The notes under the pieces are model-generated. The model was not told the DNA's origin. It ran no database searches and was given only the letters and a program-made list of their open reading frames with translations. Of a stretch of DNA of 64,000 bases, positions 22,236 to 57,160 are shown in pieces. How positions within the stretch are numbered: the stretch's first letter is position 1; the number at the start of each line of letters is the position of its first letter. Both the position numbers and the translations under genes were made by a program. This DNA comes from a virus. Location: positions 1-64,000 of IMG/VR virus record IMGVR_UViG_3300033233_000027, one strand, 5' to 3'.

Positions 22236-24338
22236 ATGAGACGGCGAAAGTACGAGCGGTTCTCTGAAGACGACAAGGCAGCGATGCTATCGCTGTCGAA
22301 AGAAGGTCTGCGGTCAAAGGAGATCCAGACTCATCTTCCACATCTGCCAACCCAGCGAATCAGCGGATTCCTTCGAATGCACAAGGCCCCAGGAGCGAAT
22401 CCAAATCCTCGATCGACCGTTCTAGTACGAACGACGGCTGAGGCCGCACCGCAAGTCAGGGCCGCTGCTGCCGCAGCCGCTTCTGGTAATGTGCAGGCTT
22501 CATCCAACCCACTTCCGTTTGCTGCTCAACCTACAACCGCAGCGCACCATCAATCGCAGCCATCTGCGGAATATGACTTCCGGCCGACGCAGACCCCGAT
22601 GGTGACGAGCGGAGGAATTCCGGTATCATCTGGTCAGGGTCAGAGACTGGAAGTCGAACGAATCATTCCGCAAGATGGGCTTCTTGGCGTTCACCCGATG
22701 TCGTTCTTGAAAGATGATATCGGTCGTGTTTATGGTTCTGGAACATACAGAATCACGACGCGCTCAAATAGTGGACAAATAATGACCGCAGAAGTTCCTA
22801 TTGCGGCCACCTATGGTCCTCCGCTTTCACCGAAGCGTTATTCTGGGCGAGAAGGACAGCCTGATCGGTCACAACCGAAGCTATGGAACGATCCACAAGA
22901 TCAGCAGTATCGCTTTGAACGCGCAGAGGCGCTTCGCGCTTCTCATAGTCCAGCTGAAGATCTCAAGAACACCGTCCAAGCTACGAAGGAACTCATGACG
23001 CTTGCGAAGGAAAACGGCCAGGACAGTTCTGGCGGTTACGCTAGAGCCATGGAGACGCTGGCTGCCGCCGCATCGCAGCCGAAGTCTCAGGAATCTGGGG
23101 TGCTTGAGAAATGGTTCATTGCGGACGCAGAACGCCGTTCGATAGAGCGCAAAGAATCTGAGGAACGTCGGGAACGCGAACGTCGTGAGGACATGGAGCG
23201 CCGAGATCGTGATCGGAAGGACGACCAGACGCGTTTCGATCAGATAATGGAACTTGATCGCCAGCGGGCTGTGAGTTCCAACAAAGAAAAAGATGACGCA
23301 CACAAGCGAGAAATGGAAAGGCTGAAGGAAGAGAACTCCGCTCGAGTTGCTTGGGAAGCAGAACAGAGAAAAACGCTCCTAGAACTCGAGGCGAAGAAGA
23401 TCGAACTCGTGACCAAGGCGCAAGAGGCTAGGGAGAAGGAACTTGATCGCCGTATTGAAGAAGTAAAAGCTGAGGCAGAGTCTGGCAGGGATTCGATCCA
23501 GGGAGAGCTAGAAAAAGAGCGCGATCACCAGACGGCAATGTTCGATCTTCGGTCAAAGCAACTCGACATACAGGAAAAGTTCCAGAATGAAAAGCTGGAT
23601 ATGCAGCGCCAGCAGATCACTTCCTCTAGTGCGGATAGCGTCCTCTGGGGGACGGTAAAGGATCTGGTAGACAAGGGCTCTAAGGCATTTGAGAGATACA
23701 CGGAGACTGAACAGCTCAAGATGGTTGTCGAAGAGGCTAAAAAGAACGGCGTTAGTCCTGGAACTGTAGCAGACCTCGGGCGGGCAGCCATGGCTGGGAA
23801 TATGCAGCCTGAGGCAAAACACACTTCCACGGGCCAAGCCTCCAATACAAACGGAAATGGGAATGGAAAGGGGGCGGAAGTGGGCCTACTCGACCGATTC
23901 TTCAAGGATCCGATCTTTGCTGAAGTCGTGGAGGAGTGGGGCCTTGCGGTCTCTGTCAAGGCAAAGCCGAGTACATTCGCCAACACTTTCCTAGTCTGGA
24001 TGAACGATCCAGAAAACACGACATACAAGAAGGCGACATCGACCTTTGCTCTGTTCCTTGAGAACAGAGACTGGCCATCGATGTTTGAAGCCATGCAGAG
24101 AAATCTTTCTGCCAAGATCACGGAGCCATTCAAGTCTCCGTATGCGGCTGAATTCTATGAGGCATTCCGCGTCATCGTCGTGGAGAGTACGCGTTATCTC
24201 TACGCGGAGTTCATGCAACAGCGGGCTGACCAAGAGGCTCGTGTTGCGCAAGAAGCGGCAGCGAACAACGGATCTTCTGAACCTGTAGCGGAAGAGTCGT
24301 CTCAGCCCCTGAAGGAAACGGAGCGCATCAGGGCATGA
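22236..24338 (+). CDS. 700-aa protein: N-terminal HTH, low-complexity linker, long E/R/K coiled coil, C-terminal helical domain
   Basis: Start reassigned to MRRRKYERF (SD GAGGG); FSEDDKAAML...GLRSKEIQ..L......ISGFLR; ATGA-coupled to next gene. Confidence 0.85.
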   Translation: MRRRKYERFSEDDKAAMLSLSKEGLRSKEIQTHLPHLPTQRISGFLRMHKAPGANPNPRSTVLVRTTAEAAPQVRAAAAAAASGNVQASSNPLPFAAQPTTAAHHQSQPSAEYDFRPTQTPMVTSGGIPVSSGQGQRLEVERIIPQDGLLGVHPMSFLKDDIGRVYGSGTYRITTRSNSGQIMTAEVPIAATYGPPLSPKRYSGREGQPDRSQPKLWNDPQDQQYRFERAEALRASHSPAEDLKNTVQATKELMTLAKENGQDSSGGYARAMETLAAAASQPKSQESGVLEKWFIADAERRSIERKESEERRERERREDMERRDRDRKDDQTRFDQIMELDRQRAVSSNKEKDDAHKREMERLKEENSARVAWEAEQRKTLLELEAKKIELVTKAQEAREKELDRRIEEVKAEAESGRDSIQGELEKERDHQTAMFDLRSKQLDIQEKFQNEKLDMQRQQITSSSADSVLWGTVKDLVDKGSKAFERYTETEQLKMVVEEAKKNGVSPGTVADLGRAAMAGNMQPEAKHTSTGQASNTNGNGNGKGAEVGLLDRFFKDPIFAEVVEEWGLAVSVKAKPSTFANTFLVWMNDPENTTYKKATSTFALFLENRDWPSMFEAMQRNLSAKITEPFKSPYAAEFYEAFRVIVVESTRYLYAEFMQQRADQEARVAQEAAANNGSSEPVAEESSQPLKETERIRA

Positions 24339-25036
24339 CCGAACACAAAAGGCTGCGGAGGCTTGGCATCGCGATTGATGCCGCCCCACCAGCCTATGGT
24401 GAAGTATTACGGACTCCTCTGGAGGACGACTTCGGGGGCATCCGGTTTGAAGTCGGTCGTGCTGTCCAATACGTAAAGGAAGGTGGCGCAGATCCGCTTG
24501 TGGTTGACACGGCGAGATATTGCGCGATGCTCGCGAGAGATACGGCAGAACAGCTTGGTTTTCCCGTAACTCCTGAGAACGCAAAGTTGATTGACCTGGA
24601 GGGGGTATTCCTTTGGGTCCAGGCCAACTTCGTTTACGTTGATGATCCAACTGGAGTGGAAGTGATGCAGACAGCACCTCGTATGCTCCGTCAGAAGATG
24701 ACGCCGCATGAAGTGCTGGAATGGATGTGGGCTCCGATTCGAGATGGAATGGCTCTTGCCCGCGGTATTGATCCATCGGAATTAAGCTGTCCTGAAGGAA
24801 AAGTGATCGGAGATTGCGAAGAGGCTGCCTGTCTTCTGTTGGCCATGGCTGCCGCTCTTGATATCGGTCCTCTGAAGTTCCGCTTCGGCGGGAATGATGG
24901 CCAACTCCACCATGTTTGGGCTTCTGCTATGGCTGGTGGAGAGTGGCGCGACATGGATGCTACTCAGCGCCAGTTAGGGTTCGATCAGTTTCTGCCATTC
25001 GACCACTTCGATGAACTGGAGGTCGAACTTCCGTGA
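24335..25036 (+). CDS. Transglutaminase-like (papain-fold) Cys-His-Asp enzyme, putative virion maturation protease
   Basis: YVDDP.GVE, GDCEE (Cys), HHVW (His), WRDMDAT (Asp). Confidence 0.88.
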   Translation: MTEHKRLRRLGIAIDAAPPAYGEVLRTPLEDDFGGIRFEVGRAVQYVKEGGADPLVVDTARYCAMLARDTAEQLGFPVTPENAKLIDLEGVFLWVQANFVYVDDPTGVEVMQTAPRMLRQKMTPHEVLEWMWAPIRDGMALARGIDPSELSCPEGKVIGDCEEAACLLLAMAAALDIGPLKFRFGGNDGQLHHVWASAMAGGEWRDMDATQRQLGFDQFLPFDHFDELEVELP

Positions 25037-25653
25037 TCCTAGGAAAATGGTCTGATGGGCCACGCCTCGGCGCGGTTGAGCTGGTTGAGCTAGGCTCAAT
25101 TCGTCGTCACGCCTCCATGGGTGGCTTCCTAGACTTCTTAGGTGGGTTCGCTGGAGAGGTTGCTGGATTCTTCGGGAGTGCTGTTGGCGCTGGGTTGGGA
25201 TTCCTTAAGGATGCGCTGAATGTCGGGCTGAAGCCGCTGATGGATGGGGTTGCGTCTGCCTTCACTGGGCTGGCAGATATCCTTCGGGAGATCCCGCTCA
25301 TCGGGGAAATCGTTGGTGGCCTCATCCTAGTTATCAACGCGGCCATTCAGACGCTGCTCTCTCTTCCGGGGCTCTTGATTGACGCGCTTCCGAAGATTCT
25401 TAAAGGACTGACCAGTTCGTTCTTTGGGGCGTACGGTAAGGATGAGCAGAGTTCAATCCTAAGCACGGTTCTGCCGAAAGTGGCCGCCAGAGCTCCAGAG
25501 CCGATTCGGAATGTCGTCAAGACCACGCTGGCTGAAACTAGGCCAGCGATTGACGGTTCGGTACAGCCACCCGAATCTGCGGGTGGAATTGATCCGCTTG
25601 TAATCGCCGGGGTCTCTGCCGCGGTTGTTGCCGCAGCTCTGATCGCGGCTTGA
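25033..25653 (+). CDS. Membrane protein with amphipathic helices and C-terminal anchor
   Basis: Leader PRLGAVELVELG; ends LVIAGVSAAVVAAALIAA. Confidence 0.85.
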   Translation: MILGKWSDGPRLGAVELVELGSIRRHASMGGFLDFLGGFAGEVAGFFGSAVGAGLGFLKDALNVGLKPLMDGVASAFTGLADILREIPLIGEIVGGLILVINAAIQTLLSLPGLLIDALPKILKGLTSSFFGAYGKDEQSSILSTVLPKVAARAPEPIRNVVKTTLAETRPAIDGSVQPPESAGGIDPLVIAGVSAAVVAAALIAA

Positions 25654-25688
25654 CCTATCCAAGGCCTATTTTTTTTGGAGAAGACACG

Positions 25689-26393
25689 ATGGCGGAGAAG
25701 AAGGGGGCGGGCACCAAGCCTGCCGGTTCCCGCCGCGGCGGGAACGTCGTGGTGGATCTCGGCGAGACGATTGACGACGTGATCGACGCCGCAGTCGAAG
25801 CTGGCTACAAACCAAAGCAGGGTTTGGGAGCGGCTGGTAACACGAAGCCAGGTGGGTATCGCCCTGGTTTCCTCGGTTCGAATTTCCGACCTGGTATCGG
25901 ATTCCGTCCGAGCGGTATTCATCCATCCAAGCTGGGTATGGCCCTCAATATCCAGAGGACCGTGGACACGATGAAGGTTTTGGGTGGGTCCATTGCGGGC
26001 ATGGCGTTCAACCGTGTTCTGTATCGAGCCATCCCGAAGGTGTCCACGTCCGTCACGTCGGAGCTGCTGGTCAATGGAGCGGCTGCCGTTCTTGGAGTCG
26101 CGCCCTACTTCCTTTTCAAGAAGGAAGGTCATGGAAGCGATTTCCTCGTCGGATTCGCGATCCCAGGCGTCGTGACATTCGCTGGATCGCTCTTCGACAA
26201 GCTCCTTGGCGCGGTCGCCTCCAGCGTCCTTCCGAAGCCGATGCTGTCTGGCCCGGATGCGTCCCGGCCAGCGACGGACGCGCATCGTGCTTTGGCGGAA
26301 GCCAACCGTACGCTTGACGCGCTCAAGGGCCGGATGGGCCTACAGCGTCAGACGGTTGTGTCTCTGCCACGGGTTCAGGGGGTGGCTTCTTAA
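25689..26393 (+). CDS. Membrane protein with multiple LG/MG motifs, upstream of candidate capsid gene
   Basis: ATG 25689 with SD GGAG; three central hydrophobic segments. Confidence 0.85.
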   Translation: MAEKKGAGTKPAGSRRGGNVVVDLGETIDDVIDAAVEAGYKPKQGLGAAGNTKPGGYRPGFLGSNFRPGIGFRPSGIHPSKLGMALNIQRTVDTMKVLGGSIAGMAFNRVLYRAIPKVSTSVTSELLVNGAAAVLGVAPYFLFKKEGHGSDFLVGFAIPGVVTFAGSLFDKLLGAVASSVLPKPMLSGPDASRPATDAHRALAEANRTLDALKGRMGLQRQTVVSLPRVQGVAS

Positions 26394-43712: not shown

Positions 43713-44069
43713 TTACGTTTTCGGACGTGTCTTTATCTTCTCGCGCATTCTATCTGCGTCTTCTTGCACATCAGCGTTGAAGCTGGACCAATCAGATAGG
43801 TGCCCAAAAATAATATGGCAATCGTGCGAATTCTCATCACAGAGAGAGATGAGGTTCGTTTGATCGAGTTCCAGCGCAGGATTCAAATGAAACGGCTTCT
43901 TATGGTGGACCTGGACATCCTTCGTAACGCCGCAGACAGCACACATCGGGTTCTTCTCGAGATGCTTCTTGCGAACTGTCGGCCATTGTGGACTTCTTTT
44001 CAAGCCAGCAGCCTTGATCGGTTTGTCCTGTGGGCGACCTAGGATGGCATTCCGAATTGCGTTTAGCAT
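43713..44069 (-). CDS. HNH endonuclease
   Basis: RS.QW..VRK.HL...P.CAVCG....VQVHH...NLISLC...CHIIFGH. Confidence 0.88.
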   Translation of the reverse strand: MLNAIRNAILGRPQDKPIKAAGLKRSPQWPTVRKKHLEKNPMCAVCGVTKDVQVHHKKPFHLNPALELDQTNLISLCDENSHDCHIIFGHLSDWSSFNADVQEDADRMREKIKTRPKT

Positions 44070-44265: not shown

Positions 44266-44337
44266 CTGCCCCGTCACGATTCGAACGTGAACCTTCCGCA
44301 TCCAAAGTGCGGCGAGCTACCGTTACTCCACGGGGCA
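44266..44337 (-). tRNA. tRNA-Gln(UUG)
   Basis: TGCCCCG/CGGGGCA acceptor, CCGCA-CT TTG GA-TGCGG anticodon arm, GTTCGAAT T-loop; no encoded CCA. Confidence 0.9.
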
Positions 44338-44698: not shown

Positions 44699-45361
44699 TC
44701 ACGCCATCAGCGGTAGTTCGTACTCGTCATAATTCTCGAAGGGATGATGTTCCCCGAATTTTGGATGGAGAATGTCGCAATCCACGAACCGTCGTTGGCA
44801 GCCAATCGAAGCCCAGACGTAGTGCAGGCTTCCTCCAGTTCCTCCAAGCCTCATCTTGAGCGGGCTTAGGCCAATGGCCGCAGCAAGCGTCAGTACGAGA
44901 ATTGTCGCATCGTCTGAGTCGCCGGACATCTTCGGACTCGGACACTGGAGCGGTCCAAGATCATTCAATTTGCTTTGAGCAAATGCCGCTTGGATCGGAT
45001 TCCAGAAGATATCCAGCACTTCCTTTGGCGTACGAAGTCGGCGCAGATTGTTTGCAGCAGTACGAATACATTCCGAGCCGATAGGATCCTGTACGTACAC
45101 AAATCTGTCATGGCACCACGCGTACAGTCCCTGAAGCTGAACGAGATCGCGATTGTCTTCTGAGAGTACCACACCATTTTTACTAGCTGCCTCTGCTGAG
45201 AATGTGGCAATGAGATGCGCTGTATCTATTACCAGCGGATCGGTGTGGCCTTCACAGATGAAGTCTGCCATCCGACCAAGAGTGAATTGGACCGCATCAA
45301 ACTCTGGCAATCTCCTAATTCTTGATTCACCTAGCCCTGGGATGTTGTCCTTACTCTTCAT
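44699..45361 (-). CDS. Catalytically altered paralogue of the transglutaminase-like enzyme
   Basis: Collinear with 24335..25036 (DPLV.DTA, FVYV.DP.G.E, PLK.R.GG..G.LH.VWAS) but GDSDD and LHYVW; start MKSKD with SD AGGAG. Confidence 0.88.
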   Translation of the reverse strand: MKSKDNIPGLGESRIRRLPEFDAVQFTLGRMADFICEGHTDPLVIDTAHLIATFSAEAASKNGVVLSEDNRDLVQLQGLYAWCHDRFVYVQDPIGSECIRTAANNLRRLRTPKEVLDIFWNPIQAAFAQSKLNDLGPLQCPSPKMSGDSDDATILVLTLAAAIGLSPLKMRLGGTGGSLHYVWASIGCQRRFVDCDILHPKFGEHHPFENYDEYELPLMA

Positions 45362-45648
45362 GCCTTGGCTCCTTCTAGGATTCCAGAATCCTATCGTTCT
45401 ACGACCCCTGCTCCACAACACGTTGGGCAAGTCTTCTGCTTCGTACCACGAATCTCTCTGGCGAATACCACCGGGCTTCCCCAGTCAGCTTTTGTGAGGA
45501 TGGCAACGGCCTCTTGAAATGTCTTTGCGGCAAGAACGGCTCGCATATCCTTAAAGCAGGAAGGCCAGTCATCGCATGGACTCGGTTCAATGTTCAGATA
45601 CATCCGCTGTAGCTGTTTATCGGTATAGGTCTTCATGATTCCTCAATA

Positions 45649-57070: not shown

Positions 57071-57089
57071 CTATCCTCCATTCACGTAG

Positions 57090-57160
57090 TAGGCCGTAGA
57101 GGAGTCGAACCTCTATCAAGCCCTTATAAAGAGCCCGCTCTACCGTTGAGCTAACAGCCT
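57090..57160 (-). tRNA. tRNA-Ile(UAU)
   Basis: AGGCTGT/ACGGCCT acceptor, GCTC/GAGC D-stem, loop TT TAT AA, GGTTCGACTCC T-arm; no encoded CCA. Confidence 0.85.

Follow-up and report, generated by a model that had tools for sequence, protein, structure and literature searches.

The record analyzed here is a complete virus of 77,684 bp (~78 kb) with direct terminal repeats, and the window, i.e. the whole stretch of DNA that was analyzed, comprises its first 64 kb (64,000 nucleotides). Two genes whose products are predicted to have a transglutaminase fold were located in the window, and these were the only two such copies in the whole 77,684-bp record. The gene of an inactive copy, P0001, was encoded on the minus strand and that of an active-looking copy, P0002, on the plus strand (Table 1). 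Other recognizable genes were scarce in the record, being limited to a DnaD-like loader, a DnaB helicase, an HNH endonuclease, a YunG-like gene and a weak ParB-like gene, while two tRNAs and collagen-like genes at the ends were the further annotated features. The large plus-strand gene block contained no match to capsid, portal, scaffold or terminase families. Relatives of P0001 or P0002 were not found in the IMG/VR and GTDB species genomes searched, and the family appeared to be virus-specific, known only from uncultured virus-like contigs. In BFVD, three unnamed viral proteins (I1ZBG7, A0A345MR87 and A0A345N0L5) matched the P0002 model with Foldseek E-values of 1e-5 to 1e-7, and their source viruses might point to a virus group related to this record.

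Table 1. Positions of the two paralogous genes, their motif codons and surrounding features in the window, and of second copies in metagenome loci
Feature	Position	Strand	Remark
P0001 gene, inactive paralogue, subfamily B	44699..45361	(-)	220 aa; predicted transglutaminase fold; Ser149/Tyr181/Asp196 at triad positions
Shine-Dalgarno AGAAGGAG	45369..45376	(-)	7 nt 5' of the P0001 ATG
Stop of the gene upstream of P0001	45391-45393	(-)	29 nt before the P0001 ATG
Ser149 codon TCA, catalytic Cys position	44915..44917	(-)	N-terminus of helix 149-162 in the model
Tyr181 codon TAC, catalytic His position	44819..44821	(-)	strand 178-188 in the model
Asp196 codon, retained third triad residue	44774..44776	(-)	invariant across subfamily B
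tRNA-Gln(UUG)	44266-44337	(-)	about 360 nt downstream of the P0001 gene
HNH endonuclease	43713-44069	(-)	downstream of the P0001 gene
tRNA-Ile(UAU)	57089-57160	(-)	farther from the P0001 gene than tRNA-Gln
Large gene block	15.7-42.4 kb	(+)	
Conserved module with P0002	22080-26393		752-aa protein, P0002, two small proteins
P0002 gene, active-looking paralogue	24335..25036	(+)	233 aa; C161, H193, D208
KRLRRLG-IA extension of P0002	24335-24380		N-terminal
Gly/Ala-rich 206-aa protein	25033-25653		
RLGA.EL.ELG segment of the 206-aa protein	around 25033-25110		N-terminal
247-aa protein	25650-26393		
Subfamily C copies	L020-L030, e.g. L028:10705-11343, L025:4899-5498, L021:10699-11316		directly downstream of the active gene

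The P0001 reading frame was intact, running from an ATG at 45361 to a stop at 44699-44701, and had its own Shine-Dalgarno sequence, as the original prediction had stated. This sequence, AGAAGGAG, is separated from the ATG by 7 nt. The short distance to the stop of the upstream gene places the P0001 gene within a minus-strand polycistron. The gene was located 20 kb from the P0002 gene in a run of small genes. Upstream lay genes for an 81-aa Cys-rich protein and a phrog_419-like protein, and downstream a 58-aa ORF, the tRNA-Gln and the HNH endonuclease. The minus-strand block as a whole held small accessory and replication-type genes. A promoter and terminator scan around the P0001 gene gave no signals above those of shuffled sequences. 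Copies of AACGATAG flanking the gene on both sides were considered as a candidate feature and rejected, since they occurred at chance level (11 of 100 shuffles). No sequence variants were present in the contigs of one probable source run and of one identical run of low depth.

The P0002 gene followed the gene of a 752-aa protein and preceded two small conserved genes, which encode a Gly/Ala-rich protein and a 247-aa protein. This order of 752-aa protein, enzyme and two small proteins was syntenic in 16-25 metagenome loci from soil, sediment and peat (L003-L029), and some of the contigs carrying it were 156-242 kb long. None of the module proteins matched a structural family of Pfam or PHROG, and an ESM Atlas search with the 752-aa protein was uninformative (scores under 0.8, TM under 0.25). 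The N-terminal segment RLGA.EL.ELG of the Gly/Ala-rich protein was conserved in 17 metagenome loci. The clade of P0002 displayed a conserved N-terminal motif, [RK]-[LM]-G-[IV]-[AS], which reads KRLRRLG-IA in P0002 itself; P0001 starts without the first 12 residues of P0002 and thus without this extension. With regard to a prohead-type protease system, the module of P0002 was syntenic across loci, and none of the neighbors of P0002 matched a capsid, portal, scaffold or terminase family. Capsid, portal and terminase genes being unrecognizable, nothing anchors a reading of P0002 as a maturation enzyme. Both that label and the idea that P0001 traps leader peptides, which came with the original prediction, are hypotheses.

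In several active homologues of P0002 an intein was inserted exactly at the catalytic Cys, the host protein reading up to IGD, the intein running from its first C to HN, and the C-extein resuming with CDE. The carriers were L032:2-1627 and L034:26-556 and the proteins P0024, P0028, P0031, P0033, P0055 and P0071. Among these, the Pfam family Intein_splicing was above its cut-off in P0024, P0031 and P0033, and LAGLIDADG_3 in P0031 and P0071. No intein was seen in the dead copies.

P0001 had been described as a full-length collinear paralogue of P0002, and BLASTP confirmed the relationship with 83 identities in 216 positions (38%, E 4e-52). The alignment was collinear, with residues 19-232 of P0002 facing residues 8-218 of P0001 and only 7 gap positions. 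Two motifs differed between the copies. GDCEE of P0002 (C161) was replaced by GDSDD in P0001 (S149), and LHHVW (H193) by LHYVW (Y181), every detail of which agreed with the predicted changes. The third residue of the triad was retained, D208 of P0002 corresponding to D196 of P0001. Transglutaminase-like enzymes require a Cys-His-Asp triad. P0002 contained all three residues, whereas P0001 had Ser and Tyr in place of the first two. P0001 joins clear homology to the active-looking copy (E 4e-52) with replacement of the catalytic Cys and His, which are 100% conserved in 40 active members, as is expected of a pseudoenzyme.

Assignment of the pair to the transglutaminase superfamily was indirect. 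In Pfam, P0002 reached only 15.7 bits with Transglut_core (PF01841; cut-off 23, E 0.019) and so stayed below the gathering score, while P0001 gave no hit with this family; neither protein was covered by PHROG. A family profile was then built from the 16 homologues of P0002 together with P0001 and P0002, and was searched against 1.84 billion representatives. This retrieved 462 proteins at E ≤ 1e-3, of which 74 had E ≤ 1e-10. Among 51 distant matches tested, 49 were bona fide PF01841 members, so that the tie of P0001 and P0002 to the superfamily is a transitive one only. In these 51 relatives the D-C pair and the His were invariant and the triad Asp nearly so, and they occupied the same profile columns as in the family, where P0002 carries the signature D-C ... 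H-x-W ... D. The distant PF01841 relatives read x-H-V-[WY] at the His motif, their His being aligned with the second His of LHHVW and the first being variable. Since only the second His is invariant, the residue that is now Tyr181 in P0001 corresponds to the catalytic His. A PDB sequence search with the family profile returned designed helical repeats and chance hits only.

AlphaFold2 gave confident models for both proteins (pLDDT 92.4 for P0001 and 95.2 for P0002). In the models, residue 149 (161 in P0002) opens a helix, residue 181 (193) is placed in a strand and residue 196 (208) just after the next strand. A VIA fold search matched the models to PDB 3KD4 with Z 12.9 and 12.6 and an rmsd of 3.0-3.1 over 137-139 residues. 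Both also matched PNGase, TG3, factor XIII, LapG and PeiP at Z 9-11, and PeiW, TglA and a CPR cysteine protease were further transglutaminase-fold matches. Inactive members of the fold were found among the matches as well, namely protein 4.2 (7UZS, Z 9.5) and XPC/Rad4 (8EBV, Z 9.4). Foldseek alone gave weak E-values (3e-3), with top matches that were all of the transglutaminase fold. Both models displayed the transglutaminase/papain-like core, and P0001 and P0002 are accordingly predicted to share the transglutaminase (papain-like) fold. In the predicted complex of P0002 with P0001, the control in which the partner was kept scored too high, and the prediction speaks neither for nor against binding.

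In family and subfamily profile searches, no fewer than 19 intact proteins were recovered that cluster with P0001 and have 27-47% identity to it; these are referred to as subfamily B. The members were full length save for a few fragments from short contigs. A search of 5.8 billion protein clusters yielded no relative that exceeded 47% identity. The position of the nucleophile was occupied by Ser in 14 of the 19 proteins, by Ala in four and by Cys in one, and that of the His by Tyr in 16, Thr in two and His in one. Cys and His never occurred together in a B protein, whereas in the joint alignment they did so in all 40 active-type sequences. Asp196 was conserved in 100% of the subfamily and His180 in 79%, P0039 being one member without His180. 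Most residues conserved throughout the family were retained in B (R30, W82, D92-P93, T101, R104, P122, G173-G174, W183 and D196), while two residues that are invariant in active proteins were relaxed, namely Asp148, which precedes the Cys position, to 53% and Glu97 to 68%. Subfamily B also had invariant or nearly invariant residues of its own (L76, A81, R107, G164, G184 and F202). Three "switch" positions were conserved in B and in the active proteins alike but with different residues: the C had become S, the H had become Y and, two residues past the Asp, a T had become L. All three were located at the former active site.

Such a conservation pattern points to a changed function under selection and not to neutral decay. 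Selection on B is deduced from the intact frames and the conserved residues, that is, from the proteins and not from dN/dS. The neutral decay among homologues that would have spoken against retention was accordingly not seen, and retention of P0001 as a pseudo-enzyme is supported by the intact B proteins, by their clade-specific residues and by the position of B as sister to the active clade. An active "TQ-type" gene and a B gene were seen together in the genome of one virus only. None of the B proteins looked up was located on the 86-kb and 66-kb contigs of P0004 and P0007, the closest active relatives on long contigs, and these look-ups are compatible with a B copy there. Conservation of the P0001/P0002 pair in relatives is something that we infer from the tree only. 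One B protein, P0170, had Cys at the nucleophile position (GSCGV) and Tyr at the His position, and was encoded on a very long contig (426,845 bp), which is part either of a very large virus or of a cellular genome that contains a provirus.

A total of 32 metagenome loci with relatives of the enzyme were examined, originating from soil, rhizosphere, sediment and peat. Ten of these had, directly downstream of the active gene, a further copy without the Cys, and these copies constitute subfamily C. Their motifs included GTHED, GDPVD, GSPDD and GDDVD, and the His was retained in some and replaced by Arg in others. No second copy was present in loci L003-L019 within the fetched flanks of up to 10 kb on each side. 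At all ten loci the candidate start of C overlapped the stop codon with which the active gene ends (ATGA or GTGA) and was preceded by a GAGG or GGAGG Shine-Dalgarno sequence, an arrangement indicating translational coupling of C to the active gene. In addition, an active domain and a C domain are naturally fused in P0019, and in P0035 and P0063 a degenerate N-terminal copy was found ahead of the active domain. The dead copy of lineage C is thus, as far as gene arrangement tells, made together with the enzyme. The dN/dS values of the C copies (0.08-0.41) equaled those of the active genes next to them (0.08-0.37), both being taken from the same pairs of loci. Two checks put forward with the original prediction are answered by these loci. 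Relatives do keep active and inactive genes as pairs, in the ten loci of sister lineage C, whose dead copies appear to have an independent origin. Purifying selection by dN/dS is likewise indicated, the measurement and its outcome (0.08-0.41) applying to the C copies only.

In a 77-row maximum-likelihood tree, subfamily B was monophyletic (SH-aLRT 98) and branched as sister to the active clade of P0002, which is marked by D-x-D-x-T-Q. The joint clade had a support of 98, and a second tree gave the same topology. The sister position suggests that the duplication is older than the diversification of the P0002 lineage. Branches in B were longer than those in the active clade. Subfamily C was also monophyletic (100) and was placed, along with the active genes that it accompanies, inside a 99-supported clade. 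A constraint joining B and C in a single clade cost 81 log-likelihood units and was rejected (AU p 4e-6), the groups of this AU test having been named after the tree had been seen. Dead copies thus appear, from these phylogenies, to have been acquired and retained by the family at least twice and independently.

Taken together, P0001 is probably a conserved pseudoenzyme retained by selection which works by binding and whose role is most likely tied to P0002 or its ligands; we hold this reading with moderate confidence. The virus's own gene for a Cys-His-Asp enzyme would have been duplicated long ago, giving rise to a full-length copy with the transglutaminase fold. This copy would then have lost its nucleophile (Cys to Ser) and its general base (His to Tyr) and have been kept under selection for a non-catalytic role. 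P0001 may act by binding, having kept most of the conserved core residues (W82, D92-P93, T101, R104, G173-G174, W183 and D196), and may bind either P0002, as a non-catalytic partner or regulator, or the peptide ligands of P0002. Its location in the minus-strand accessory block 20 kb away suggests that P0001 and the enzyme may be produced at different times. A role tied to P0002 was ranked first because dead copies recur in the family, because those of lineage C are coupled or fused to the enzyme, and because the core is kept in B. In contrast to the C copies, the P0001 gene lies apart from the P0002 gene and in the opposite orientation, which weakens the reading of B as a stoichiometric partner. 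Dispersed genes in opposite orientation imply separate timing, and a regulator or escort fits this better than an obligate stoichiometric subunit. A bolder form of this idea, which we put forward as rather unlikely speculation, is that the lineage uses an enzyme that needs a dead partner, an arrangement evolved at least twice, with P0001 acting as a temporal regulator of the virion-module enzyme or its substrates until assembly. The copy would then be coupled or fused in one lineage and dispersed and separately timed here.

The core residues kept in B and the separate regulation of the gene (opposite strand, 20 kb) would also suit a protein that retains the substrate groove, binds the N-terminal segments on which the enzyme would act, and shields or escorts them without contacting the enzyme itself. 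Such a stand-alone trap or chaperone would also fit with the conserved RLGA.EL.ELG at the N-terminus of the gene product after the enzyme (17 loci) and with the absence from P0001 of the 12-residue N-terminal extension (KRLRRLG-IA) of the active clade. However, the fold of P0002 spans proteases, cross-linkers, amidases and wall hydrolases, and cleavage by the module enzyme is putative, so that we regard this stand-alone ligand binder as possible though unlikely. The surroundings of the gene bring a host target to mind, as its neighbors are small, fast-evolving genes of accessory type (HNH endonuclease, tRNA-Gln, YunG-like and ParB-like) and the branches of B exceed those of the active clade in length. 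A decoy, an anti-defense protein or a superinfection exclusion factor, functionally unconnected with P0002, would be conceivable on these grounds. Yet no homology to defense or anti-defense proteins was found. Free divergence would also be at odds with the core residues retained in B and with its place as sister of the active clade, and the gene arrangement in the parallel lineage C shows a clear tie to the enzyme gene. A host-directed factor is therefore considered improbable.

Changed chemistry is conceivable since Ser and Tyr are themselves conserved in B. With Ser the commonest residue at the nucleophile position (14/19), Tyr181 in 16/19, His180 at 79% and Asp196 at 100%, P0001 might still be an enzyme, using for example a Ser nucleophile with His180 or Tyr181 and Asp196. 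Against such an activity, Ala occupies the nucleophile position in four B members and Cys in one, Thr replaces the Tyr in two, and P0039 is without His180. Catalytic residues would not be expected to vary in this way, which makes a residual or altered activity unlikely. His180 is moreover next to residue 181 in a beta-strand of the model, so that its side chain would be expected to face the other way, and the conservation of Asp148 and Glu97, both invariant in active members, drops to 53% and 68% in B. An enzyme of altered chemistry is thus quite improbable. The loss of two triad residues and the lack of any relative above 47% identity in 5.8 billion protein clusters could also mark a decaying duplicate on its way out. 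The intact frame, the Shine-Dalgarno sequence, the confident AF2 model and a conserved clade of 19 members with 27-47% identity and invariant residues of its own led us to reject this pseudogene reading as extremely improbable. A conserved pseudoenzyme whose binding role is linked to P0002 or its ligands is the reading that we prefer.

The solved examples of PF01841 share their fold with P0001 and P0002 and include 3KD4 (putative protease BDI_1141), PNGase (1X3W), LapG (4FGO) and PeiP/PeiW (8Z4F/8JX4). Unlike PF01841 proteins, P0001 and P0002 have a helical N-terminal region of roughly 130 residues ahead of the core, and P0001 further differs from PF01841 enzymes in lacking the catalytic Cys and His. 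Pairing an enzyme with a pseudoenzyme is a recognized way to regulate proteases and transferases. In rhomboid-family biology, iRhom is an inactive protease relative that is kept for a regulatory or binding role (PMC6451368). Its fold and biology are unrelated to those of P0001, and the likeness is conceptual only. Neither a signal peptide nor an anchor is present in the P0001/P0002 pair, whose two genes are dispersed, 20 kb apart on opposite strands; adjacent genes are confined to the sister viral lineage C.

No description of a transglutaminase-fold enzyme/pseudoenzyme pair in a bacterial or archaeal virus was found in the literature. The family represents an unannotated branch of the superfamily that is specific to viruses and in which dead paralogues arose repeatedly, the arrangement in this record being a dispersed one. 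Among a set of soil and sediment virus contigs that otherwise lack annotation, the enzyme module is the only conserved one. Together with its dead partners, the enzyme offers the best available entry to particle building in viruses without recognizable capsid, portal or terminase genes, and the family is a clean natural system for asking why enzymes recruit inactive twins.

The closest parallels by fold are found in eukaryotes, where erythrocyte protein 4.2 and Rad4/XPC are non-catalytic binding proteins of the transglutaminase fold. Like P0001, they have this fold and have lost the catalytic residues. They are, however, large and multidomain and have no sequence relation to P0001 beyond the fold, whereas P0001 is viral, consists of one domain and is encoded in the same genome as its active parent.
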